Virus record (IMG/VR): IMGVR_UViG_3300032001_000013
Coordinates: 1-45,046 of that record
Source: a virus
Lineage: Duplodnaviria; Caudoviricetes
Direction: 5' to 3' (one strand)
Length of the DNA stretch: 45,046 bases
This document shows positions 53 through 42,347 of the stretch, piece after piece (position 1 is the first letter of the stretch; every line of letters begins with the position of its first letter). The translations under genes were made by a program, and so were the position numbers. A model generated the notes under the pieces. That model was not told the DNA's origin. It saw nothing but the letters and a program-made list of their open reading frames with translations, and searched no databases.

Positions 53-69
53 TGGTTCACTGAACCATT
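49..69. promoter_or_regulatory. Palindrome AATGGTTCA-C-TGAACCATT
   Basis: Perfect AT-rich inverted repeat; identical 21-mer in reverse complement at 33106-33126; both copies are associated with GGY-NN arrays. Confidence 0.7.
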
Positions 70-111
70 GACAAGCGAGGGAGGCGGCCCCCGACGTTGA
101 TCGCCTCCCCC

Positions 112-550
112 GCCTGCCGAGCCGGGCATTGCCCACCCGTGCCGATCCGTGCCCTTGCCTGCGCTGCCGCGCGATGCCCCGCCGAGCTGCGCCTTGACGT
201 GCTGAGCGATTCCTGCCCCGACTTGCCGAGCCGTGCGGTGCGATCCGTGCCGACCGAACGGCGCCCAGCCGAGCCTTGGGCTGCCTCTGCCTGCCTCACA
301 ATGGCATGCCTCGCCCCGCCTTGGAACGCCTCGCCATGCTTTTCCGGCCGAGCCGGGCCGGGCTGCGCTAGGCCCTCGAAGCCACGCCTAGCCTTTCCTG
401 CCTCGCCCAGTGCCGCATCGCCGTCCACGCCGTGCAGCGGGGTGCCACGACGGCCGCACCTTGCCTTGCCCTGCATTCCGCGCAGAGCCGAGCTGTCCGG
501 ACGGTGCCGGGCCAAGCCACGCGATCCGATCCCGTGCCGGGCCCTGACGT
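112..550 (-). repeat. GGY-NN pentamer array 1 (about 7 units; putative non-contiguous guide RNA)
   Basis: 5-nt periodic GCC-NN on + strand (GGC-NN on -), units separated by GGCAGG/GGCCGTC-type spacers; promoter-like TATCTT-CC-TTGATA at 563-550 on -; hairpin at about 79-110 downstream. Confidence 0.9.
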
Positions 551-590
551 ATCAAGGAAGATAGCACATCGCAGAGCATGAGGAGGGCCG

Positions 591-3020: not shown

Positions 3021-4040
3021 ATGACCGAGCTTGCCACCGTTGCGAACGGGCAGCTGGCGCCGGCGGCACCGCTGGGCGGCCTGCGTCCCCGCGTTGCCTC
3101 GCGCAAGAGCGACGACTACGTTGCCCAGATCGAGGCCCGCCGGGCGCGCTCGGCTCCGCTGACCCGCGAGGCCAAGGTGCGCAAGATGGCCTTGATCCTC
3201 TCCGACGAGCTGCACGGCTTCCGCCGCCTGGGCGTCGGCATGGTGGGCCCGATCCAGCTGAAGCTGAGGTACCAGGGCATCGTCCGCAACGTGCTCGTCG
3301 AGGACCCGGTGACGCCGGGCACCCCGGTCGAGTACGACGTGTGGGACGACCTGGGCCAGGCCTACATCCTGAGCGGCACCGAGGGCGAGGTCCGGGTCAC
3401 GCCCTTTGAAGGCAAGCGCATCCCGGTGCGGTTCTTCCGCATCGCCAGCCGCCCGGCGATCCGCAAGGAGGACCTGTTCTACCTCCGGATCAACGCGGTC
3501 GAGCAGGCCCAGGACGAGACCAAGCAGGCCATCCTGAAGCAGGAGGACGCCCGCCTGCTGGTTATCCTCCAGGCCGCGGTGACGGACTACGCCACCCGCC
3601 CGGACCACGTGGTCACGCCGAACCACAACATCACCGAGGCCTCGGGCTATCTCACCCCGGGCAGCCTCTACTCGGCTGTCGCGATGACGGACCTGCACGA
3701 GCTGCCGTCCGCCCGGCTCATGATCAACCCGTTCGACTTCCGCGACATGTACCGCTGGGACATCAACCAGACGGGCTGGGCCTTCAAGGACCGCGTGGTC
3801 GCCGGCGAGACGATCACCAGCTTCGGCGAGTTCCAGATCCAGCGTTCCATCATCGTGCCGCAGGCCAAGATCTTCCTGACCCCCGAGCCCAACTTCCTCG
3901 GCGTCTTCCCGGTCCTCTACTCGCTCGACGTCGAGGAGAACCACATGGTCGAGGCCTTCTGGAAGGGCTGGGTGTTCGACGAGATGGTGGCTATGTCCAT
4001 TTTGAATCCAAGGGGAATAGCCACGATCACCAAGAGCTGA
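3021..4040 (+). CDS. Major capsid protein
   Basis: GPIQLKLRYQGIVRNVL, YRWDINQTGWAFKD, YSLDVEEN...KGWVFDE closely resemble Bxz1/cluster C MCP; strong RBS. Confidence 0.93.
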   Translation: MTELATVANGQLAPAAPLGGLRPRVASRKSDDYVAQIEARRARSAPLTREAKVRKMALILSDELHGFRRLGVGMVGPIQLKLRYQGIVRNVLVEDPVTPGTPVEYDVWDDLGQAYILSGTEGEVRVTPFEGKRIPVRFFRIASRPAIRKEDLFYLRINAVEQAQDETKQAILKQEDARLLVILQAAVTDYATRPDHVVTPNHNITEASGYLTPGSLYSAVAMTDLHELPSARLMINPFDFRDMYRWDINQTGWAFKDRVVAGETITSFGEFQIQRSIIVPQAKIFLTPEPNFLGVFPVLYSLDVEENHMVEAFWKGWVFDEMVAMSILNPRGIATITKS

Positions 4041-4344: not shown

Positions 4345-4497
4345 GATTCACCTCCTCACCTCACTCGGCGGGGCGGGCGGCCACGGACGGCATGGCGTAC
4401 GACCTCCTGATCGCGGTACCGCAGGGCGCCCGGGGCTTCGGGACACCCGGGCGTTCGCTTGCCCGGCCAGGGTACCAGTGATTAGGGTTCATTGATT

Positions 4498-9799: not shown

Positions 9800-9852
9800 C
9801 GCCATGTCCGGACAGATTCCCCGTGATCTCCCCGTGACTTGACATGCAGTGC

Positions 9853-9867
9853 TAGGTTTATTGATAT
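9853..9867 (+). promoter_or_regulatory. Phage promoter motif TANNNT-N2-3-TTGAYA (representative copy)
   Basis: Copies at 4483, 5028, 5919, 6674, 7889, 8422, 9853, 11252, 15090, 16881, 24481, 32752, 34492 (+) and 563, 26910, 30033, 37478 (-). Confidence 0.8.
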
Positions 9868-9890
9868 TGACCGACCAAGCGGGAGAACGG

Positions 9891-11249
9891 ATGAGAACCG
9901 AGACGGAGATCGTTGCCGCCATGAGAGCGGCGGCGCAGCCAGGACGGCTGCGCCTGAGCAGGCAGGTCACCGCGCAGCTGCGGGGCCTGACCGATGAGCT
10001 GGCGGCAGCCCGGCCGGCCTCGGCGCAGGAGTACGCGCGGTTCCTGGCCATCGGCCGCCGCGGCATGGTCCTGCCCGAGGCGGAGCTGGCCGGCCGGATC
10101 CGGCATGCCACCATCCTGGTGACCGGCGGGACCGGCTGCATCGGCACTGAGCTGATCCGCCAGCTGGCTGAGCGGCGGTCGGGCCTGGGCTGCCTGGTCA
10201 GCGTCAGCCGCGGCATCACCAGCGGCTACCCGCGTCACCCTGAAGTCAAGTACCGGCATGCCGACATCTGCGATCGCGCTGCCATGAATGAGCTGATGGC
10301 CGAGATCAGGCCCGATCTGGTCTTCCACGTGGCGGGCCAGCGCGACCCGGGCCTGGCCGAGACCGAGGTGCACCGCACCGTGACCACCAACGTGCTCGGC
10401 ACCCGCGCCGTGCTGGTCGCGGCGGTACGGGCCGGCGTCCCCCAGGTGGTGTGCTGCTCGACCGGCAAGGCACTGCGGCCGTACTCCCCTGACGTGTACA
10501 CGGCATCCAAGCGCGCGGCCGAGTGGGTCGCCTCGGGCGTGGCCGCTGCCACCCCCATGCTGGTCTCGGCCAGCCGGTTCACGCACGTGATGGACAACTC
10601 GATCATCTGCCGGAAGCTGTGGCGCTGGGCGGAGGCCGGCCGTGCCATGCGGCTGCACGACCCCGGTATCGCGTTCTACGTCCAGTCGGCCCGGGAGTCC
10701 GCCCAGCTGCTGCTGCTGGCGGTCCTGGAGGCCCGCCGGGGCGAGTTCCGGGTCAACGCCCTGACCGATCTCGGCTGGCCGGTGAGCCTGCTGGACGTCG
10801 CGCTGGGGACGCGGGCGGCGGCAGGCCCGGAGTCGCCGGTCTACTTCAGCGGCTACGACCGCGGGTACGAGGAGACCCCGTTCCCGGGCCTGTACGACCC
10901 GCTGACCGCGGGCGGGGTGAGCCCGCTGCTGAACATGTTCGAGGCCGCCGCGAAGACGGGCTGGGCCGAGGGCCAGGCCGACACGTTCCGGCTGGGCTTC
11001 GCGCCCGACCGGCAGGCCCTCAAGCGGCTGGCCGTGCTCGCCGAGGTCTGCGGCAGCACCACGAACCCGGGGCTTGCCCGGGGCTGCCTCGATGAGCTGT
11101 CCTGGGCGCTGCTGTCCGCGGCCACGCGGGCGGTCCCGCCCGCGCTGCTGGCCCGCTCGGCCAAGATGGCCCGGCAGCAGGAGCCGCTGAGCGACGTGCA
11201 CCGCCGCGTCCTGGAGGTTATCGAGTCAGCGACCGGTGTATTCGGGTAA
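9891..11249 (+). CDS. CapD-like NAD-dependent nucleotide-sugar epimerase/dehydratase (polysaccharide biosynthesis)
   Basis: ILVTGGTGCIG Rossmann motif, VFHVA, NVLGT, STGKA, YTASK. Confidence 0.85.
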   Translation: MRTETEIVAAMRAAAQPGRLRLSRQVTAQLRGLTDELAAARPASAQEYARFLAIGRRGMVLPEAELAGRIRHATILVTGGTGCIGTELIRQLAERRSGLGCLVSVSRGITSGYPRHPEVKYRHADICDRAAMNELMAEIRPDLVFHVAGQRDPGLAETEVHRTVTTNVLGTRAVLVAAVRAGVPQVVCCSTGKALRPYSPDVYTASKRAAEWVASGVAAATPMLVSASRFTHVMDNSIICRKLWRWAEAGRAMRLHDPGIAFYVQSARESAQLLLLAVLEARRGEFRVNALTDLGWPVSLLDVALGTRAAAGPESPVYFSGYDRGYEETPFPGLYDPLTAGGVSPLLNMFEAAAKTGWAEGQADTFRLGFAPDRQALKRLAVLAEVCGSTTNPGLARGCLDELSWALLSAATRAVPPALLARSAKMARQQEPLSDVHRRVLEVIESATGVFG

Positions 11250-11290
11250 GCTAGGTTCATTGATATTCATTCACCCGAGGGGGACTACTC

Positions 11291-12634
11291 ATGACTGCCG
11301 CGCCGGGGCGACCCTGGGCTGAGGGCGAGCCTGCCCACCAGTTCCAGGTACCCGCGTACCAGCCGCCCGCCCATCTCCTGGGCCCGTTCCGCGTTCCCGA
11401 CGACACCAGCACCCAGGTCATGCCCGCCTGGCGGCCCGAGGAGACCGTCACGGCGCCGCTGCCGCTGGGCCAGCCCGAGCCGGTCCCGGCGCCGCGGCGC
11501 AACCGGATCATCGCCCTGGTGCCCGTGCACAACGGGGAAGCGGACCTGGCCCCGGCCATCGAGGCGCTGCTGGCCCAGACCCGCCCGCTGGACGAGATCA
11601 TCATCATCTCCGACAACTCGACAGACGGCACCGTGGCGGTCGCGAGCCGCTACCCGGTGACGGTGATCGAGTCGGCAGGCAACAGGTACCGCAAGTCCGG
11701 CGCGCTGAACCAGGCCTGGCGCAAGTACGCCCAGGACGCCGACTACGTGGTGTGCATCGACGATGACACCCGGCTGCCGCCGTTTGCGGTGGAGCACTTC
11801 GAGGCCGAGATGACCGAGGATCCCGGGGTAGGTGGCATCTCCTGCCAGGTGGTGATGCGGGGCAGCAGCATCCTGAGCCGGATCCAGCGGGCCGAGTTCG
11901 CGCAGAGCACGGTGCTGAGCCGGAACCGGGGCTGGGTCCGGGTCATCTCGGGCACCGGCTGCATCTTCCGCAACGAGGCGCTGCGCGAGGCCGCCCTGCT
12001 CCCGGGCCAGGAGGGCCCGTGGACCTACCGCAGCGTGGTCGAGGACTACCACCTGACCTTCCAGCTGCGCAAGCTGGGCTGGCTGTGCATCATGAGCAAG
12101 GACGTGTGGTGCGACACCGGCAGCATGCCCTCGGTGAAGGCGCTGTGGCACCAGCGGGTCAAGTGGCAGTCCGGCACGATCGGCGACCTGATCAACTTCG
12201 GCTTCAACCGGATGAACTGGCGCGAGTGGATGCAGCAGTTCTACGGCCTGATCTGCGTGGCCTTCTGGATCCTGTGGATCTCGCTGAACGGGACCGCCTG
12301 GGCCCTGGGCGGGCTGCACCCGAACATCTGGTGGGTCATCTTCCCGGCGATCTTCGCGGGGACCGAGTGCTTCTACGCCTGGCACATCCACGGCCGCGAC
12401 TGGAAGGACATGCTGCTGGCCGTCTCCATGGTCAAGATGATGATCTACACCTTCCTGTGCATGGGCTGGAACCTGGCCAGCTGGTGGATCATCCTGCGCG
12501 GCAAGCAGAAGGACCTGTGGGCTGCCCAGTACGTCGCCGACGGGACAGACAAGGTACTAGGGGAGGGAATGAGCGATGCCGGACCTGCCAGCGAAGAGGA
12601 CCGTCGTCCCGCGCCGCAGGCGCTATGCCGTTAG
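11291..12634 (+). CDS. Processive GT2 glycosyltransferase (cellulose/PNAG synthase-like)
   Basis: PVHN, DNSTD, KSGALN, DDD, VED, QRVKW (QxxRW-like) and C-terminal TM helices. Confidence 0.9.
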   Translation: MTAAPGRPWAEGEPAHQFQVPAYQPPAHLLGPFRVPDDTSTQVMPAWRPEETVTAPLPLGQPEPVPAPRRNRIIALVPVHNGEADLAPAIEALLAQTRPLDEIIIISDNSTDGTVAVASRYPVTVIESAGNRYRKSGALNQAWRKYAQDADYVVCIDDDTRLPPFAVEHFEAEMTEDPGVGGISCQVVMRGSSILSRIQRAEFAQSTVLSRNRGWVRVISGTGCIFRNEALREAALLPGQEGPWTYRSVVEDYHLTFQLRKLGWLCIMSKDVWCDTGSMPSVKALWHQRVKWQSGTIGDLINFGFNRMNWREWMQQFYGLICVAFWILWISLNGTAWALGGLHPNIWWVIFPAIFAGTECFYAWHIHGRDWKDMLLAVSMVKMMIYTFLCMGWNLASWWIILRGKQKDLWAAQYVADGTDKVLGEGMSDAGPASEEDRRPAPQALCR

Positions 12635-13697
12635 CGCGGCCCTGGGGACCGTGGCAGCGGCCGTGCTGGGCCTGGCGCTCTGGTCGATGGCCGGCGTGAC
12701 CGCGGCCTACCGCGGGGTGACCCCGGCCGCCGCGGCAGCGGCAGCGCCCGCGCCCCGGCCGCTGGTGATCTACCACGCGCCGTTCGTCAGGTACGAGAGG
12801 GCCAGGGCCGTGCCGGTGCTGGTCTACCACGAGATGAACAACGGCTGCGCGCCCTCGGCGCCGGTCTGCAAGGCGGCCGACCCGGAGACGGTGAGCACCG
12901 CCCAGTTCCGGGCCGAGATGGCCTACATGTTCAGCCGCGGCTACCACACCGTCACCATGGCGCAGTACCAGGCCTGGCTGGGCAACCGCAAGACGAGGCT
13001 GCCGTCCAGGCCGTTCCTGATCACGGCGGACAACGGCATCTGGAGCTTCCTGTCCGGGGCCCAGCCGGTCCTGGCGGGCTACGGCTACACCGCCGTGGCC
13101 GCGGTCGTGACCGGGTTCGCCGACGGGGCTGGCGGGCACTGCGCGCCGCGGATCGGCGGGGTCAGCGTCCAGCCGGGCTGCCCGCGGGACAACGCCGGCT
13201 GGGATGCCACCTGGGCCCAGCTCCGGTCGCTCGACCCGAGGGTGTGGGAGTTCATCCTGGAGGCCGGGCCGTCCGGCCACTACGTCCAGGATTACGACCC
13301 GCACTGCCGGATGTTCGACGCCTGCCTGCTGCCCGGCGAGACCGTGGCGCAGTACCAGGTCCGCCTGGCGGCCGAGCTGGGCGGCGGCGAGACGGCGCTG
13401 GCTGCCCGCCTGGGCAGCCGCGTGAACCCCGGCGGCTGGGTGGTCCCCTACAGCGACCTGGGCTACCCGCGCTGCGCGCAGGGCGACTGCACGCCGCAGG
13501 ACGCCACGATCCCGCAGGGCTACCTGGTGAATTACGCCGATGCTCACTTCCGGGCCGTCTTCGTCGAGGATGCTTCCCGCAATGCCATCGGCCACGAGCG
13601 GTTCCGGTTCGACGTCAACGGCCCGGACACCGAGGCCTCATTCCAGAGCCAGCTGGCGGCTTTCACCGCCGCGGGCGCATTCGACAGGAGCAGGTAA
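12576..13697 (+). CDS. Polysaccharide deacetylase-like secreted/anchored protein
   Basis: VPVLVYHE, GYHTVT, FLITADNG (TFDDG-like); N-terminal TM. Confidence 0.75.
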   Translation: MPDLPAKRTVVPRRRRYAVSAALGTVAAAVLGLALWSMAGVTAAYRGVTPAAAAAAAPAPRPLVIYHAPFVRYERARAVPVLVYHEMNNGCAPSAPVCKAADPETVSTAQFRAEMAYMFSRGYHTVTMAQYQAWLGNRKTRLPSRPFLITADNGIWSFLSGAQPVLAGYGYTAVAAVVTGFADGAGGHCAPRIGGVSVQPGCPRDNAGWDATWAQLRSLDPRVWEFILEAGPSGHYVQDYDPHCRMFDACLLPGETVAQYQVRLAAELGGGETALAARLGSRVNPGGWVVPYSDLGYPRCAQGDCTPQDATIPQGYLVNYADAHFRAVFVEDASRNAIGHERFRFDVNGPDTEASFQSQLAAFTAAGAFDRSR

Positions 13698-19132: not shown

Positions 19133-19147
19133 TTACTATGGTTCCTA

Positions 19148-19273
19148 GCCAAGGTGAGGCTAGGCATCGCGTGTCCTGGCACGGATGGGCATGGCGGGGC
19201 CCGGCAGGAGTGGCTCGGCTTGGGGTGGCTCGTCTAGGAGTTGCCCGGCGTGGCTGGGCAGGTACGGCAAGGA
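19148..19273 (+). repeat. GGY-NN pentamer array 2 (2 units)
   Basis: Strict 5-nt register with GGCAGG separators; units match the flanking genes when decoded. Confidence 0.9.
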
Positions 19274-19297
19274 AGTCACGCCAGAGCGGAGTCTGCC

Positions 19298-19720
19298 ATG
19301 CCCTTCAGGCCTGACCCGGCCGCGATGTCCGGCGTCTACGAGACCACCGAGACCTCGGGCCCGACCGCCAACTTCACCGACATCCGGCACACAGCGCCGA
19401 TCTTCGGCATCGCGGTCGCCACCGACCTGGCCTGGGCGCTGCGCGCGATGGACGCCAGCGACGAGGACGTGCCGCCCAACCTGGTGCAGACCAGCCCCGG
19501 CCTGACCGTCAACCGCGGCGACCCGGAAGACGACCGCCGCCGGATCATCGCCGCCGCCGAGCGCAACCGGCACCACCTGGACCGCCTGGGCTACACCTAC
19601 GACGAGCACGGCATCCCCGTCCCGCCCCCGGCCAACCCGGCGCAGTCCTGGATGCACCAGGCCTCCTCGCTCGGCCCCATGACGAACGTCCCGCACGAGC
19701 CCGCCGGCCCGGCCGGGTAG
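19298..19720 (+). CDS. Hypothetical phage protein
   Basis: ATG with GGAG RBS; GC3-biased codons. Confidence 0.8.
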   Translation: MPFRPDPAAMSGVYETTETSGPTANFTDIRHTAPIFGIAVATDLAWALRAMDASDEDVPPNLVQTSPGLTVNRGDPEDDRRRIIAAAERNRHHLDRLGYTYDEHGIPVPPPANPAQSWMHQASSLGPMTNVPHEPAGPAG

Positions 19721-32742: not shown

Positions 32743-32766
32743 TTTTCCTGATAAGGTTCATTGATA

Positions 32767-33770
32767 GGCCTGGCCGGGCCAGGCGAAGCCTTGACAGCGC
32801 GTCAAGGCATCGCGTGGCAGGAAAGGCTAGGCGTGGTGCCGATCGCCCGGCGTCGCTCTGCTAGGCAGTCGAGGCGCAGCCCGGCGCGGATGGCCGGGCC
32901 GGGTAGCGCCAGGCAGAGCAGGGCAGGGCAGGATGGGCCCCGCTCGGATGGCTGGGCATGGCAGCGCAGGAAAGGAATGTCTTGGCCTGGCCAGGCGAGG
33001 CCCGGCGGGGCAGTCATGGCTCGTCTAGGCATTGCGGGCCAGGGCGAGGCGAGGCAGGCGATTGCTCGGCGGGCCGTGGCGCCGCAGGGCAGGTCTAGGC
33101 AGGCTAATGGTTCAGTGAACCATTAAGGCAGCCAAGGCATGCCGGGGCGAGGCTCCGCGGGGCATCGCCGGGTATCGCAAGGCCGTCATCGCGGGGCACC
33201 GCCCGTCCTGGATGGGCATGGCGCCGCGCGGCGCTGCCAGGCAGGATTGGCGAGGCTTGGCCCAGGCATTGCCGGTCGTGGCACCGCCCGGCAAGGCAGG
33301 AGAGTCTGGGCTAGGCGGGGCATCGCTCAGCGCGGCGAGGCACAGTGCCGCGAGGCCGGGCGGGGCTAGGCAGTCCAGGCATCGCTCGTCGCGGCCAGGC
33401 ATGGCCCGGCGAGGCGCAGCGAGGCAGTCCCGGTATCGCTCGGATGGCTTGGCCAGGCAAGGCCAGGCAGGGCCGTCGAGGCGTGGCCTTGCGCCGCCTG
33501 GACCGCAACGCATCGCAAGGCTGGGCAAGGCAGGTGCAGCCTGGCAAGGCAGTGCCTGGCGGCGCAACGCGCAGCCTGGCCAGGCGAGGCAGTCAGGTCG
33601 TGGCGAGCCTTGGCCCGGCAGTGCCCGGCCCGGCAGCGCCCGGCACGGCATGGCAGGAGATGCTAGTCAGGGCCAGGCTCGGCTCGGATCGCGCGGCTCG
33701 GCGCGGCAGGAGCAGCTTGGCATGGCGGGGAGAGGCTGAGCCCGGCTAGCGGGGCAAGGCGCGGCAGGTA
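32767..33770 (+). repeat. GGY-NN pentamer array 3 (about 18 units)
   Basis: Starts right after promoter TAAGGT-TCA-TTGATA (32752); internal palindrome at 33105-33125. Confidence 0.92.
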
Positions 33771-34494: not shown

Positions 34495-34505
34495 GGTTCT
34501 TTGAT

Positions 34506-35324
34506 AGCATGGTGGTCCTGGGCTGGGCGTCGGTGGCACATCACGTCCAGGCCGGGCGTGGCCGTCCAGGCGCGGATAGCCAGGACGGCGCGTCCAGGCG
34601 CTGCCGCGCTCGGCAGTCCTGGTGTCGCGAGGCGGGGCAGTGCGTCGCTGGTCGCGGCAAGGCAAGGCCCGGCTCGGCCGTCGCGGTTAGTCTGCGCGTG
34701 TCGGTGCTGGGCCCGGAGCGCTAGGCTTCGCTGGGCCGTCGGCGCATCGCTATGCGTGGCCCGGCTTGGCGTGGCAAGGCCTCGCATCGCAAGGCAAGGC
34801 CGTCGAGGCTTAGCTGGTCTGGGCACGGGATGCCAGGCACGGCGGGGCGCGGCCGTCCAGGCTGGTCTAGGACATCCCGTCGAGGACTGGCGTGGCCGTC
34901 AAGGCCTGGCGGGTCCGGGCCCGGTACCGCATGGCACAACTCGGCGCGGCCGGAGATGCTGGGCTAGGCGAGGCATCGCGGGGCGCGGCGAGGCTAGGCC
35001 GTCTGCGCGGGGCTCGGCAAGGGTCGCTCCGCTCGGCAGGGCACGGCGAGGCCGGGTTGGCAAGGGTCGCCCGGGTGGCGTTGCATCGCTTGGCCGTCCT
35101 GGTATAGCCCGGCGTCGCATTGCGAAGCGGCGCGGGGCATGGCCTGGCTGTCGAGGCTGAGCTTGGCGCTGCGTCGCTTGGCGCTGCGAGGCTGGGCGCG
35201 GCCGTCCTGGCCCGGCCCGGAGGCGCAACGCGGGTCCAGGCGAGGCAGGGCTAGGCCGTCTAGGCACGTCCCGGCGGGTCGGGGCTGAGCTAGTCGCCGC
35301 CTGGCAAGGTGTGGTGAGGCAGGA
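34506..35324 (+). repeat. GGY-NN pentamer array 4 (about 15 units)
   Basis: Follows promoter TAAGGT-TCT-TTGATA (34492); GGCCGTC separators. Confidence 0.92.
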
Positions 35325-35377
35325 GGTTCTCCGGCCCGGGAAGACGTGAGGATGTCTTCCCGGGAGGAGAGCCCACG

Positions 35378-36931
35378 GTGACGGTTCCGACTTTTTCGTC
35401 TTATCAGCCTCCTGGCGTCTACGTCTCCGACGTCACCGGGCCCATCGTCACCACGACCGGGGTCTTCCCGCAGATCCTGACGCTGGTCGGGCCGGGGCTC
35501 GGCTACCGCACCGCGGTCCAGACCTTCCAGATCTTCGCGGGCACGGGCGCCATCCTGAACTTCACCGGGGTCTTCACCACCGCCCAGGCCGGGCCCCCGG
35601 CGATCGCCGCGCCCGTGATGACGGTCACCGGCTCCAGCACCATCCTGGCCCAGGGCACCGACTACAGCTTCACCGTGACCCCGGACCCCTCGGGCAACGC
35701 CGCGCTGGCGGTCACCTCGGTCTTCCGGGTCGGCACCTCGACCAGCATCGCCGACGGCGCCCAGGTGACGATCACCTACAACTACGCCGACGTCACGTAC
35801 TACCAGCCGCAGCTGTTCACCAACTTCCCCGCGGTCACCAACGCCTACGGCCAGCCCCTGGTGGCCGCCGCGCCGACCCAGGCCAACGTCAGCCAGGTGG
35901 CCAACCCGCTGAGCTACGCCGCGCAGACCGCATTCGGCGCCGGGGCCAACCAGGTCATCGCGTGCGCCTGCAACCCGGCGGACGGCACCCTGGAGCAGCA
36001 GCTGCTCGCCGCGTACACCAAGCTGGCTGCCGTCTACGACTCGACCCTGGTGGTCCCGGTCTTCCCCGACTACCTGGGCGGCTTCGCGGGCGGCTCCGGC
36101 GTGTCCCAGTACGCCCTGACGCTGGCCACCGACCTGGACGGCGCGATGCAGGGCGCCAGCGTCAACGGCTACCCTCGGATCGGCTTCTTCGGGCTGCCGG
36201 TGGACTACTCCGAGTCGGCGCTGCCGGTGCCGAGCTTCTCCGCCTCGATCGCCGACAAGCGGCTGGTGCTGGCCTACCCCAAGGCCCTCCAGGCCTACAA
36301 CCCGCTGACCCGGCAGACGTTCAGCGCCTCGGGCTGCTACCTGGCGGTCGCGCTGGCCGCGGTGCTGTCGGCGCTGCCGGTGAACACCGGGCTGACCGGC
36401 CAGGCGGTGCCCGGCTTCGCGGGGCTGACCGCGGCCGAGCTTCAGGCGATGACCCCGGCGTTCATGAACAGCCTGGCCCAGGCCGGGACCACGGTGGTCT
36501 ACCAGAGCCGCAACGGCGGGCTGACCTGCCGGCATGGCCTGACCACCAACATGAGCGCGCTGAACACCCGGGAGATCTCACTGGTCCGCCAGGCCGATGC
36601 CCTGCTGGTGTCCCTCCAGGCCGGGATGGAGAACTCCGGGCTGATCGGCACGCCGATCACCGCGAACACGGTGGCCACGGTGCAGGGCGCGATCGTCTCG
36701 ATCCTCCAGCAGGACATCGCCCAGGGCATCATCGCCAGCTACACGAACCTGGTGGTCGCCCAGCAGCAGTACCCGGGCGGCGACCCGACGGTGATCACCG
36801 CGACCTTCTCCTATGTCCCGAGCGTCCCGCTGAACTACATCGAGGTCACGTTCAGCATCGACCTCAGTGCTGGCCTGGTGTCCCAGCAGTCACAGCAGAA
36901 CGCGGCAGCTCCCACCGTCTCCGTGACCTGA
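35378..36931 (+). CDS. Contractile tail sheath protein
   Basis: Y..PGVYV N-terminus; RHGLTT, REISLVR..D, P..PLNYI.V.F C-terminus. Confidence 0.92.
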   Translation: MTVPTFSSYQPPGVYVSDVTGPIVTTTGVFPQILTLVGPGLGYRTAVQTFQIFAGTGAILNFTGVFTTAQAGPPAIAAPVMTVTGSSTILAQGTDYSFTVTPDPSGNAALAVTSVFRVGTSTSIADGAQVTITYNYADVTYYQPQLFTNFPAVTNAYGQPLVAAAPTQANVSQVANPLSYAAQTAFGAGANQVIACACNPADGTLEQQLLAAYTKLAAVYDSTLVVPVFPDYLGGFAGGSGVSQYALTLATDLDGAMQGASVNGYPRIGFFGLPVDYSESALPVPSFSASIADKRLVLAYPKALQAYNPLTRQTFSASGCYLAVALAAVLSALPVNTGLTGQAVPGFAGLTAAELQAMTPAFMNSLAQAGTTVVYQSRNGGLTCRHGLTTNMSALNTREISLVRQADALLVSLQAGMENSGLIGTPITANTVATVQGAIVSILQQDIAQGIIASYTNLVVAQQQYPGGDPTVITATFSYVPSVPLNYIEVTFSIDLSAGLVSQQSQQNAAAPTVSVT

Positions 36932-36933
36932 TT

Positions 36934-37458
36934 GCCTGCCCTACCCTGCACAGCTAAGCGCTCCAAGCCAAGACGAGCGCAGACGGCCATGCCCTGCCAA
37001 GCGTTCCGTGCCCGGCCTCGCCTTGACGGCCATGCCCAGCTCCGCGAGCCCGCGCCTAGCCAGGCCTCTCCGGCCGAGCGCTCCACGCCAAGCCCTGCCA
37101 AGCACGGCCTAGTCGTGCCATGCCGCTCCGGCCTCGCCACGCTCAGCGACGCCAGTCCTCGCCGAGCCAAGCGACTCCTGCCGAGCCGAGCGCGGACATC
37201 CCGGGCCGCGCCAATCCCGGCCAGGCCGCGACTGCCCGGCCCTGCCTAGCCAGGACTAGCCGCCCTGGCCCCGCGGTGCGTTTCCGGCCCCGCCAAGCCC
37301 CGCCGTGCCTAGCCACGCGACGCCCAGCAATGCGCTGACGGCCGTGCCGGGCACAGCGGCCCATGCCGGTCCAAGCGCAGCAACACCTGGACGGCCTCGC
37401 CTCAGCGTGCCCTGGCAAGCCATCTAAGCCAGGCCCGGATGTGCGGCGCCAAGACTGC
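36934..37458 (-). repeat. GGY-NN pentamer array 5 (about 10 units)
   Basis: GCC-NN register on +; promoter TAGAAT-CA-TTGACA at 37478-37465 on -. Confidence 0.92.
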
Positions 37459-40872: not shown

Positions 40873-41258
40873 GCGCGGTCCAGGAGCTGTGCCTGTCGGT
40901 GCTGATCTTCCGCGAGAACCGGCGGCGCCAGGAGGACCGGCTCCAGGCGGCGCTGTGCGCCGTGGTGGCTTCCGGCAAGGGCGACCCGGCGAAGGCCTGG
41001 CCGGAGTACTTCGGCGAGGCCCAGGCCGACGACGAGGAGTCCTTCCCCGAGACCGGCGCCGACATGAGCCAGTTCACCTGGGAGCAGCCGGACCAGGAGC
41101 GGATTCAGGACGAGCTGGAGATGCTGATGCGCGGCGCGCGGGTCACCCTGCGCGACGGCGAGCCCGCGGAGCCGCCCGAGCCGCCGCCCCAGGCCGCGCT
41201 GCGCCCGATGGTCTCCAGGATGGGCCCGGCCACGGCAGAAGAACTGGAATGGTCCTGA
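40779..41258 (+). CDS. Tail assembly chaperone -1 frameshift extension
   Basis: GGGAAAA at 40779-40785 in X XXY YYZ phase; -1 frame open to 41258. Confidence 0.75.
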   Translation, partial: GKRIGPDGAGARLDLDIDLAWRRGLLAGPSLSAVQELCLSVLIFRENRRRQEDRLQAALCAVVASGKGDPAKAWPEYFGEAQADDEESFPETGADMSQFTWEQPDQERIQDELEMLMRGARVTLRDGEPAEPPEPPPQAALRPMVSRMGPATAEELEWS

Positions 41259-41261
41259 TCT

Positions 41262-41665
41262 GCCTGCCTTGCCCTGCCACGCCTATCTATGCTGCTCCGA
41301 GCCCTTGCCTGCCTTGCCCCGCCTTGCCGTGCCAGGCTTCGCCGTCCGAGCCGCTCCTGCCTAGCCTCGCCATACTGCGCCTGTCCTCGCTATGCTGCGA
41401 CTCGCCGCGCCTCGCCAGGACTGCCCTGCCGCACCGTGCCTCGCCCAGCTGTGATCGCCCTGCCCAGCAGCGCCTTGACTGCCTTGCCCGGCATTGCCCA
41501 GCGGCCCTTGCCGGGACAGGCCCGGACATGCCAGGACTGCCTCGCCTCGCCCCGCCCTGCCCAGCCAAGACTGGCCATGCCGTCCCTTGACGGCCGCGCC
41601 CTGCTGAGCCTTGCGGAGCCGGGCCCCGCCTACCCGGGCCCTGCCGTGCCTTCGTCTCCTGCCTG
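41262..41665 (-). repeat. GGY-NN pentamer array 6 (about 7 units)
   Basis: GCC-NN register on + with GACTGCC separators; downstream of - gene 41808..42347. Confidence 0.88.
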
Positions 41666-41797
41666 GCCGCTGCCGGGCAGCGGCATCGCGAGCCAGCGCT
41701 TCCTGTCCGGCTTGCCGTGGCACTGGCTGCACCCGCAGTGGGTCTCATGCGTGCCCGGGGCCGAGCAGTGCGGCCCGCAGTCCGGTGTGCTGCCCAT
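41630..41797 (-). CDS. Possible small Cys/His-rich protein, 55 aa
   Basis: MGSTPDCGPHC...HCGCSQCHG; runs into array 6. Confidence 0.4.
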   Translation of the reverse strand: MGSTPDCGPHCSAPGTHETHCGCSQCHGKPDRKRWLAMPLPGSGQAGDEGTAGPG

Positions 41798-41807
41798 CCC
41801 CCGGAGC

Positions 41808-42347
41808 TTACGCCCCGTGGCTGAACTGCACTCCCGGGACCTCGTTCTGCCCGTCGGGGCCGTGCACGATGACTTCGAGGTCCTGATCGGTCACCACCGG
41901 GTCGCCGAACTTGTCGACTTCCTCCCGGCCGACATCGTGGCTGCCGCAGCTGTGGCAGGTGGACCGCCAGTGCCGGCCGCGCAGTGCCCGGCCGTGCGTG
42001 ACCGGGTGCAGGTCGTTCTGGAGCCGCCAGATCGTGTCGATGTTGAACGTCTCCAGCTGCTCGGCGGCCTCCAGGGCCAGCTCGGGCCGCTGGTAGGCGG
42101 CGTAGAGCCGCCGGTACCGGTACAGGGTGCCGATGCTCAGGTCCATCGCGTCGGCCAGCTGGATCAGGGTGTAGGCATCGGTGAAGCTGTCGACGCACTG
42201 CCCGAACCGCCAGGCGGCGCGTACCGAGTCCTGGCCCGCCTTGACGAGTCCCGCGTAGGACAGCTCCAGCGTGTTGAGGGTGCCCGCGTCTACGCGGCGT
42301 CCTGGCGTGGTGGTCCTCCGGCTGCCCGGTGTGTCGGCGTTATTCAT
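41808..42347 (-). CDS. HTH plus Zn-ribbon protein upstream of array 6
   Basis: LADAMDLSIGTLYRY HTH-like; CHSCGS; RBS GAAGGA; promoter-like TATTTT-CC-TTAGTA at about 42387. Confidence 0.75.
   Translation of the reverse strand: MNNADTPGSRRTTTPGRRVDAGTLNTLELSYAGLVKAGQDSVRAAWRFGQCVDSFTDAYTLIQLADAMDLSIGTLYRYRRLYAAYQRPELALEAAEQLETFNIDTIWRLQNDLHPVTHGRALRGRHWRSTCHSCGSHDVGREEVDKFGDPVVTDQDLEVIVHGPDGQNEVPGVQFSHGA

Follow-up and report, generated by a model that had tools for sequence, protein, structure and literature searches.

What does a phage gain from an intergenic tract of five-base repeats whose dinucleotides, read with one base skipped after each pair, spell motif I of SNF2 helicases? The tract lies near the left end of a virus record of 45,046 bases, which was analyzed as a whole and is called the window here. 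The record is 28% complete (complete relatives have genomes of 147 to 166 kb) and covers the structural region of a contractile-tailed actinophage from soil. The unit at positions 456 to 548 spells SNF2 motif I and is likely a VIPR guide RNA that would steer a phage Vipr filament to host anti-phage helicase genes of the Hma/BREX-related, ARMADA-I, and DISARM/BREX types, where it would likely dampen transcription during infection.

The contig and its repeat arrays

Two structural genes give the context of the contig.

Major capsid gene: 3021-4040, plus strand; capsid about 60% identical to those of cluster-C mycobacteriophages
Tail sheath gene: 35378-36931, plus strand; gives the context of a contractile-tailed actinophage

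Seven intergenic arrays of five-base GGY/NN repeats were located by lag-5 periodicity and parsing.

Array 1: about 62-555, minus strand; lag-5 periodicity
Array 2: 19140-19300, plus strand; about 3 units
Array 3: 32760-33100, plus strand; 5 units
Array 3b: 33125-33770, plus strand; 11 units
Array 4: 34505-35325, plus strand; about 14 units
Array 5: 36925-37425, minus strand; about 10 units
Array 6: 41255-41690, minus strand; about 6 units

At one-base slips of the form GGCA or GGCC, the arrays split into about 51 units of at least 7 repeats, most of which have 8 to 12. GGY accounts for 309 of the 606 three-base scaffolds, the remainder being mostly CGC, GTC, TGC, AGC, and GGA, and for 9 of the 18 scaffolds in unit 456-548. 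The parts of array 1, in the direction of its guide strand, are as follows.

Promoter-like TTGATA box at the array start: 549-565, minus strand; related copies, AAGGTT[CT]xTTGAT, lie before arrays 3 and 4 and before several genes of the phage
Guide unit A1.1: 456-548, minus strand; 19 five-base repeats, two with 2-nt scaffolds; antisense decoding gives SNF2 motif I
Register-slip junction between units (GGCC): 452-455, minus strand; other junctions at 399-402 (GGCA), 346-349 (GGCC), and 214-217 (GGCA)
Unit A1.2: 403-451, minus strand; 10 repeats; a similar unit reading VT[DE]G[CW][DE] occurs in relatives L008 and L011
Unit A1.3: 350-398, minus strand; 10 repeats; a similar unit reading [KN]YV..LAPPS occurs in relatives
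Unit A1.4a: 296-345, minus strand; sense reading [KN][IM][DE]V[KN]G
Unit A1.4b: 218-275, minus strand; antisense P[FL][DE]VV[IM]V[DE][DE]A[HQ][DE], that is, SF2 helicase motif II; 15/16 in 33 helicase loci
Unit(s) A1.5: 119-213, minus strand; delimited by parsing and comparison with relatives
Long hairpin closing the array: 71-118, minus strand; similar hairpins end the homologous arrays in L003, L004, L008, and L011
Palindrome: 51-70, no strand assigned; a second copy lies between arrays 3 and 3b (near 33105-33125)

The box at 549-565 is a putative promoter. A box of the form AGG/AAGGTT[CT]ATTGAT was also seen before phage genes or arrays at 4481, 5916, 6672, 7887, 26909, 30032, 32753, and 34493, and it is probably a phage promoter or operator. 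A scan for sigma-70 promoters and terminators returned no match, and folding of the whole array was no better than that of shuffled sequences (z = -1.4). The sense reading of unit A1.4a, for which a natural match was looked for and none was found, presumably resembles a PD-(D/E)xK nuclease motif. Units 350-398 of array 1 and 32820-32863 of array 3 have identical opening repeats, which, together with the recurring palindrome, suggests duplication between arrays.

Two open reading frames overlapping the unit (57-515 and 97-564) were rejected, as both failed a third-position GC filter that real genes pass. The first 1,000 bases of the window recur whole in two other soil assemblies, one of which may be the source, with 0 and 3 differences, none of them in unit 456-548.

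Decoding of unit 456-548

The initial annotation had read SNF2 motif I from twenty dinucleotides, which lie at 456, 461, 466, 471, 476, 480, 485, 490, 495, 499, 504, 509, 514, 519, 524, 529, 534, 539, 544, and 549. Decoding with a one-base skip confirmed both the positions and the reading, and yielded A[FL][FL]L[FL]A[DE][DE]VGVG[KN]T[IM][IM]VGL(V). Nineteen of the dinucleotides belong to the unit; the twentieth (549-550) falls in the TTGATA box, which also opens other arrays, so that the unit probably has 19 repeats. The two 2-nt scaffolds that the reading assumes are indeed needed, and they are not ad hoc, because GG+NN steps recur throughout the arrays in addition to the GGCA/GGCC junctions and because relatives slip at the homologous place. 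Under a second parse (parse B, GGA-AT-GC-AG in place of GG-AA-TGC-AG), repeat 5 changes from F/L to I/M and gives L-I-A-D as in relatives L003 and L004; parse B fits natural genes better than parse A. The view that the guide is the minus strand, complementary to the coding strand, was likewise supported.

A 19.5-base core pattern returned 120 loci from IMG/VR (about 130 were estimated), and 118 of them lie in an SNF2 motif-I context, reading hydrophobic-hydrophobic-A-D-[DE]-V-G-[LV]-G-K-T. Against 4.3 Mb of phage control DNA, the unit guide scored 26/38 at best and 40 shuffled guides scored 24 to 26/38, compared with 30 to 31/38 in SNF2 genes; a binomial estimate for scores of at least 30/38 is about 0.002 per 10-Mb genome. 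These results bear out the earlier judgment that a chance origin is very unlikely.

Fit of the unit to natural genes

An SNF2 gene matching the whole unit nearly perfectly through the gapped code had been expected, and none was found. Exact scans for 13 to 14 codons of the unit gave no match in 185,579 GTDB genomes (two scans) or in a metagenome collection (one scan), and the best natural score was 31/38, so that the unit taken singly is only partly vindicated against that expectation. The pattern search and defence-model scan proposed at the time did lead to defence helicase loci, none of them with a near-perfect full-length match. The best full-length score among the 120 core matches was 30/38 under parse A and 31/38 under parse B, and the best among 128 HmaA-type genes was 31/38. 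Seven actinobacterial plasmid genes reached 28 to 30/38, which is below the identity of 0.8 used in one figure of the preprint on the SUSP1-satellite conflict (bioRxiv 10.64898/2026.10.15.759431).

The unit fits two helicase families in overlapping parts. Its 5' part scores 15/16 on the GKTIMAGL of SNF2-NOV_C helicases (HmaA). On LIADxVGVGKTI, the central 12 repeats score 24/24 under parse B in 3 of the 120 loci (L105, L168, and L191) and 23/24 under parse A; a Nocardioides locus, L412, scores 23/24 over the same repeats. The guide's valine dinucleotide at positions 9, 11, or 17 occurs in none of 118 HmaA-type genes, though the search pattern allowed all three. Against the best HmaA variant, five of seven mismatches put a guide A opposite a target C, which may reflect either drift or a tolerated mismatch. 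Since the SNF2 loci, like the Argonaute loci considered below, were retrieved with guide-derived patterns, their match scores are partly circular.

At about twice the usual guide length, the unit likely acts as a generalist or a fused guide. Fusion is plausible in that its two parts resemble separate guides of L011 and L003, both of which contain GT-TT-CC repeats. The anti-defence reading draws on the perfect 12-repeat subwindow under one parse, on sibling guides in relatives, and on other guides of the window.

Defence context of the matched helicases

Forty-six core-match proteins, out of 80 loci with flanks and chosen mostly for being GC rich, were scanned with PADLOC, and 40 had DrmD, DrmA, BrxH, DpdE, or PLD-helicase as the top hit (E<=2e-54). 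Six of the 46 are short SNF2 proteins that are probably viral, one of which (L128) scores 23/24 under parse A. PADLOC holds defence models only, and housekeeping helicases cannot show up in it; top hits by themselves therefore prove little, and gene context is the better evidence.

All 10 matches of the unit's 5' half are SNF2 helicases with FLLADD[PA]GAGKTIMAGL. NOV_C was found in all eight scanned proteins of this GKTIMAGL family, two of which are called HmaA by PADLOC. Among 22 long metagenome loci, 16 have DUF1156 or DUF499 downstream of the helicase (45 of the 66 frames there were scanned), and the order helicase, DUF1156, DUF499/Swt1-HEPN was found in all six actinobacterial plasmid loci read out of 65 records. 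The gene order is thus that of an SNF2 helicase with a C-terminal nuclease followed by a DUF1156 methylase and a DUF499 ATPase, and these operons are Hma or type-1 BREX-related systems, which are described as comprising SNF2-NOV_C, DUF1156 methylase, and DUF499 ATPase (PMC12839542, PMC11232893), HmaA being reported there as antiphage (PMC11232893). In the six actinobacterial operons, the motif-I site lies 285 to 435 bp into the first gene. Loci L105 and L412 show the order YprA, SNF2, methylase, detected through the PADLOC surrogates DruE, DpdE/DrmD, and DrmMI; ARMADA type I is described as a YprA helicase, a BrxHII-like SNF2 protein, and a PglX-like methylase in that order (bioRxiv 10.1101/2025.09.15.676423).

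SNF2 helicases had been noted as occurring in DISARM (DrmD), Zorya (ZorD), and BREX variants. The best matches are of the DrmD/BrxH type, HmaA in DUF1156/DUF499 operons, and the ARMADA-I type. ZorD is not a likely target, being the top hit only for short, weakly matching SNF2 proteins (495 to 593 amino acids). Hits confined to housekeeping loci had been considered fatal to the anti-defence reading; none of the seven actinobacterial plasmid loci is of that kind, although they were picked by likeness to defence helicases.

The Vipr effector in related phages

The 28%-complete contig contains no vipr gene. In its relative G001, whose capsid protein is 99% identical, vipr and a partner gene are next to an array of 37 units; vipr lies about 40 kb upstream of the capsid gene, in the region beyond the left end of the window. 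A small partner gene follows vipr in both G001 and L066, and the name Vap is given to it by position only. A profile of the family, built from 39 sequences, matches the Vipr of SUSP1 (E=4.9e-11), and a structural model of Vipr (pLDDT 87) matches Cas7-type chains. Published Vipr proteins are characterized by a RAMP fold with a G-loop. Arrays and vipr co-occur: among 28 records, 4 of whose 7 vipr-positive members were chosen for having vipr, all 7 with vipr carried 3 to 53 junction motifs, and 20 of the 21 without it carried none, the remaining one having a single match.

A single-sequence search for the cognate vipr gave no match, and an alignment search gave 75 relatives, none above 57% identity except G001 itself. 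Vipr homologues at 47 to 50% identity, annotated as hypothetical, were also noted in 27 Mycobacterium and 5 Gordonia phage records (H1 to H32), which are culturable phages.

Guides in relatives and other guides of the window

Relatives have arrays at the homologous locus, too; the sequence is different, yet the units spell the same motifs. The motif-I guides of these relatives score 20/20 in L003 and L004, 19/20 in L011, 18/20 in L008, and 20/22 in L227, a more distant Vipr phage, and motif-II guides score 22/24, 18/22, and 18/22. In L003 and L004, the motif-I guide is the first unit behind the promoter box, as it is in the window. Seven of 136 guides other than motif-I guides match at least three defence-enriched loci at skip 1, compared with 0, 0, and 1 in controls at skips 0, 2, and 3 and with 1, 0, and 2 in shuffles. 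Six of the seven fall on helicase motif II (SF2/SF1). The seventh, window unit 119-213, was counted as chance, because its 15/16 match in HmaA genes is off the wobble phase and at a level equalled by shuffles. Guide-target matches fall on codon positions 1 and 2, with the skip on the wobble position.

Three further guides of the window were examined individually.

Argonaute guide: 33475-33528, plus strand; short prokaryotic Argonaute, C-terminal PIWI motif; 22/22 in sense reading
P-loop/Rossmann-like guide: 33592-33651, plus strand; glycine-rich [IM]VGLGGLG[KN]STL
ThiF/E1 guide: 35096-35145, plus strand; gene in a multiubiquitin operon on a Rhodococcus plasmid; 18/20 (18/18 over the first nine repeats), sense

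The score of the Argonaute guide includes two repeats outside the search pattern and comes from one of three pattern matches, the other two of which lie in short closed frames and were counted as chance. Exact IMG/VR scans with the P-loop-like guide and with the ThiF guide gave no match.

The least circular result concerns locus L415, which was retrieved for its HmaA only and also holds a ThiF gene in a multiubiquitin operon. This gene is matched by guides of three phages, at 18/20 by the window, at 18/18 on the opposite strand by L227, and at 25/26 by L274. That one ThiF motif is read in sense by one phage and in antisense by another is as expected for DNA targeting. The operon is taken here to be a defence system (Bil/Bub-like), and PADLOC gave only a weak E1-E2 hit on it. 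Across the seven actinobacterial loci, 5 of 522 guides reach 16/16, compared with none in three shuffles. A census of known motifs over 557 guides, designed after the guides had been seen, gave counts far above those of 300 shuffles.

Within the window, 47 of 51 guides have no assigned target. The sense readings at 37032-37071, 33533-33587, and 32762-32815 resemble kinase subdomain IX, a TPR repeat, and the phospholipase-D HKD motif, respectively. The 51 guides showed no excess of matches over shuffles in 4.4 Mb of phage DNA. Self-targeting was considered and rejected, no motif-I site with up to 3 mismatches being present in five relatives.

Large arrays were also noted elsewhere. In two large actinophages, vrRNA arrays of about 60 to 70 units lie directly behind vipr (L217:8685-12658 and L274:8723-12203), and several of their units decode to ThiF Rossmann and HExxH motifs. 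G001 carries arrays of 28 and 37 units (G001:C1:27400-28930 and 43500-45480; L082 and L083) with motif II, Walker A, and kinase HRDLKP-like readings.

Proposed mode of action

What was observed is the code, its matches in natural genes, the defence setting of those genes, and vipr next to such arrays in related phages; published VIPR biochemistry adds a route by which the guide may act. Transcription would start from the minus-strand box, and the array RNA would be cut into units at the GGCA/GGCC slips. One Vipr would then bind per repeat and a filament would assemble, each NN pairing with codon positions 1 and 2 of the target in a gapped R-loop. The bound filament would act as a transcription roadblock able to repress from either strand. 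With the site 285 to 435 bp into the first gene of Hma operons, such a roadblock would likely have a polar effect on the genes for the methylase and the ATPase.

Comparison with known systems

The arrays resemble VIPR, the systems of Vipr, vap, and vrRNA that include type II of phage SUSP1 and staggered arrays, in what the available text of the preprints describes (bioRxiv 10.64898/2026.04.26.720920, 10.64898/2026.04.26.720927). Shared features are the five-base GGY/NN repeats, the one-base skip on the wobble position, targets on either strand, the one-base slip joining units, and a homologous Vipr with its partner gene, found here in relatives rather than in the contig. VIPR guides have 9 to 16 repeats, which most of the window's units approach with 8 to 12; unit 456-548, with 19, may be two fused guides. 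VIPR units have a structured 3' tail (type II) or overlap (staggered), whereas the units of the window lack individual tails and are joined by GGCA/GGCC slips with one closing hairpin per array, a layout that fits the staggered form by description. The window differs in that about half of its scaffolds are not GGY, in the dispersal of its seven arrays among structural genes, a long way from vipr, in carrying more than 50 guides in 28% of a phage genome, and in its assigned targets, which are bacterial immune genes as opposed to satellites, prophages, and other VIPRs.

In the consulted parts of the preprints (bioRxiv 10.64898/2026.04.26.720920, 10.64898/2026.10.15.759431, 10.64898/2026.04.26.720927, 10.64898/2026.10.21.760802), the VIPR targets named are satellites, prophages, other VIPRs, and REP decoys, and the term SNF2 is absent from the text of the first. 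A literature search returned no paper on VIPR aimed at defence genes; target tables of the preprints, which lay outside the search, could hold such cases. Since the published targets are phages, satellites, and REP decoys, silencing of host immunity would be a new use. The SUSP1-satellite conflict with its solo vrRNAs offers the closest parallel in guide design, as a guide there also reads a conserved catalytic motif, in which escape mutations would damage the protein, and natural targets are matched at about 89% of read bases; however, its sole host target is the REP repeat, the satellites' decoy, and its main text names no host defence gene (bioRxiv 10.64898/2026.10.15.759431). RNA anti-CRISPRs (PMC10651486) and viral single-guide RNAs (bioRxiv 10.64898/2026.06.01.729453) are likewise described as phage-encoded small RNAs acting against bacterial immunity, but they use host Cas proteins and act on CRISPR only, whereas the phage of the window would supply the effector itself and reach unrelated systems through their gene sequences. 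The Hma/BREX-related systems (PMC12839542, PMC11232893) and ARMADA I (10.1101/2025.09.15.676423) are predicted targets and are not encoded in the window; the parts of those papers that were consulted describe no RNA-guided inhibitor.

Alternative readings of the unit

The alternative deserving most weight, although unlikely, is that the unit is a VIPR guide directed against a rival mobile element (phage, prophage, or other) through its SNF2 gene and that the defence matches are by-products of a shared motif. Phages and satellites are the published natural targets, short and probably viral SNF2 proteins carry the motif (including L128), and many of the defence operons matched are plasmid-borne or part of viral contigs. 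Other Vipr phages, in addition, have guides that decode to an HExxH peptidase motif, presumably as in prophage antirepressors. However, in the scans made here the HmaA family is the only one that fits the IMAGL half of the unit and the sibling guide in L011, and Argonaute and ThiF-ubiquitin genes are not phage replication or structural genes. The 4.4 Mb of phage DNA with no excess of matches and the five relatives with no motif-I site also argue against a target in other phages.

Also unlikely, and next in weight, is a decayed or chimeric guide that recombined from two motif-I guides at shared GT-TT-CC repeats, has since mutated, and silences nothing. The length of 19 repeats, the likeness of its halves to separate guides of L011 and L003, the A-opposite-C mismatches (5/7), which look like transition drift, and the absence of the whole string from any natural gene in exact scans are all as such a history would leave them. 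On the other hand, one parse gives the central 12 repeats a perfect match in natural genes, the unit is first behind the promoter box in the position of the L003 and L004 motif-I guides, and it is unchanged in the two other soil assemblies, one of them possibly the source.

That the guide targets a housekeeping SNF2 or DEAH helicase, remodelling host DNA metabolism and not immunity, is improbable. Motifs I and II are common to all SF2 helicases, DEAH-type guides could suit a housekeeping enzyme such as DinG, and PADLOC has no means of naming housekeeping genes. Yet every motif-I guide that reaches the position (window, L003/L004, L008, and L227) specifies V after the acidic pair, where the common actinobacterial SNF2 has M, and all seven actinobacterial loci are defence-type operons, albeit ones chosen by likeness to defence helicases. 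Finally, a chance reading of a GC-rich repeat, aided by two freely placed 2-nt scaffolds, some freedom of parsing, and about 51 units readable in two directions, is refuted by the independent guides spelling motif I in four related phage lineages, by the core-pattern loci (118/120 in SNF2 motif I), and by control DNA, in which shuffles never exceeded 26/38.

A proposed guide repertoire against host immunity

Unit 456-548 belongs to a set of more than 50 guides, which together likely address several immune systems. Phage counter-defences known so far are mostly one protein blocking one system. It is probable, with somewhat less confidence than is attached to the unit itself, that in one clade of soil actinophages VIPR has become a broad anti-immunity system that is programmable. 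Each genome would carry tens to more than 100 guides, aimed at catalytic motifs that are invariant within otherwise unrelated defence families: SNF2 helicases (of Hma, ARMADA, DISARM, and BREX), short Argonautes, E1 enzymes of the ubiquitin-like kind, and probably kinases and P-loop NTPases. A single guide would then suffice to silence an entire family in different hosts, and guides without an assigned target would amount to a list, written by the phage, of defence genes yet to be recognized. If so, the arrays would be an updatable, virus-kept memory of host immunity, a mirror image of CRISPR, and they would make it possible to ask directly whether a phage is rescued when defence genes are silenced at infection. 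Undecoded guides could point to undiscovered defence systems in soil actinobacteria.

Other features of the window

Three further features of the contig were noted. An endonuclease VII (HNH-like) gene at 1693-2241 on the minus strand is inserted before the cement-protein gene, and no such frame is listed there in the near-identical L002. A sugar epimerase and a glycosyltransferase, both identified by Pfam, and a possible polysaccharide deacetylase are encoded consecutively at 9849-13697 and are possibly involved in surface or DNA glycosylation. Directly upstream of array 6 and on the same strand, positions 41811-42347 (minus) hold a gene for a 179-amino-acid protein of no family.
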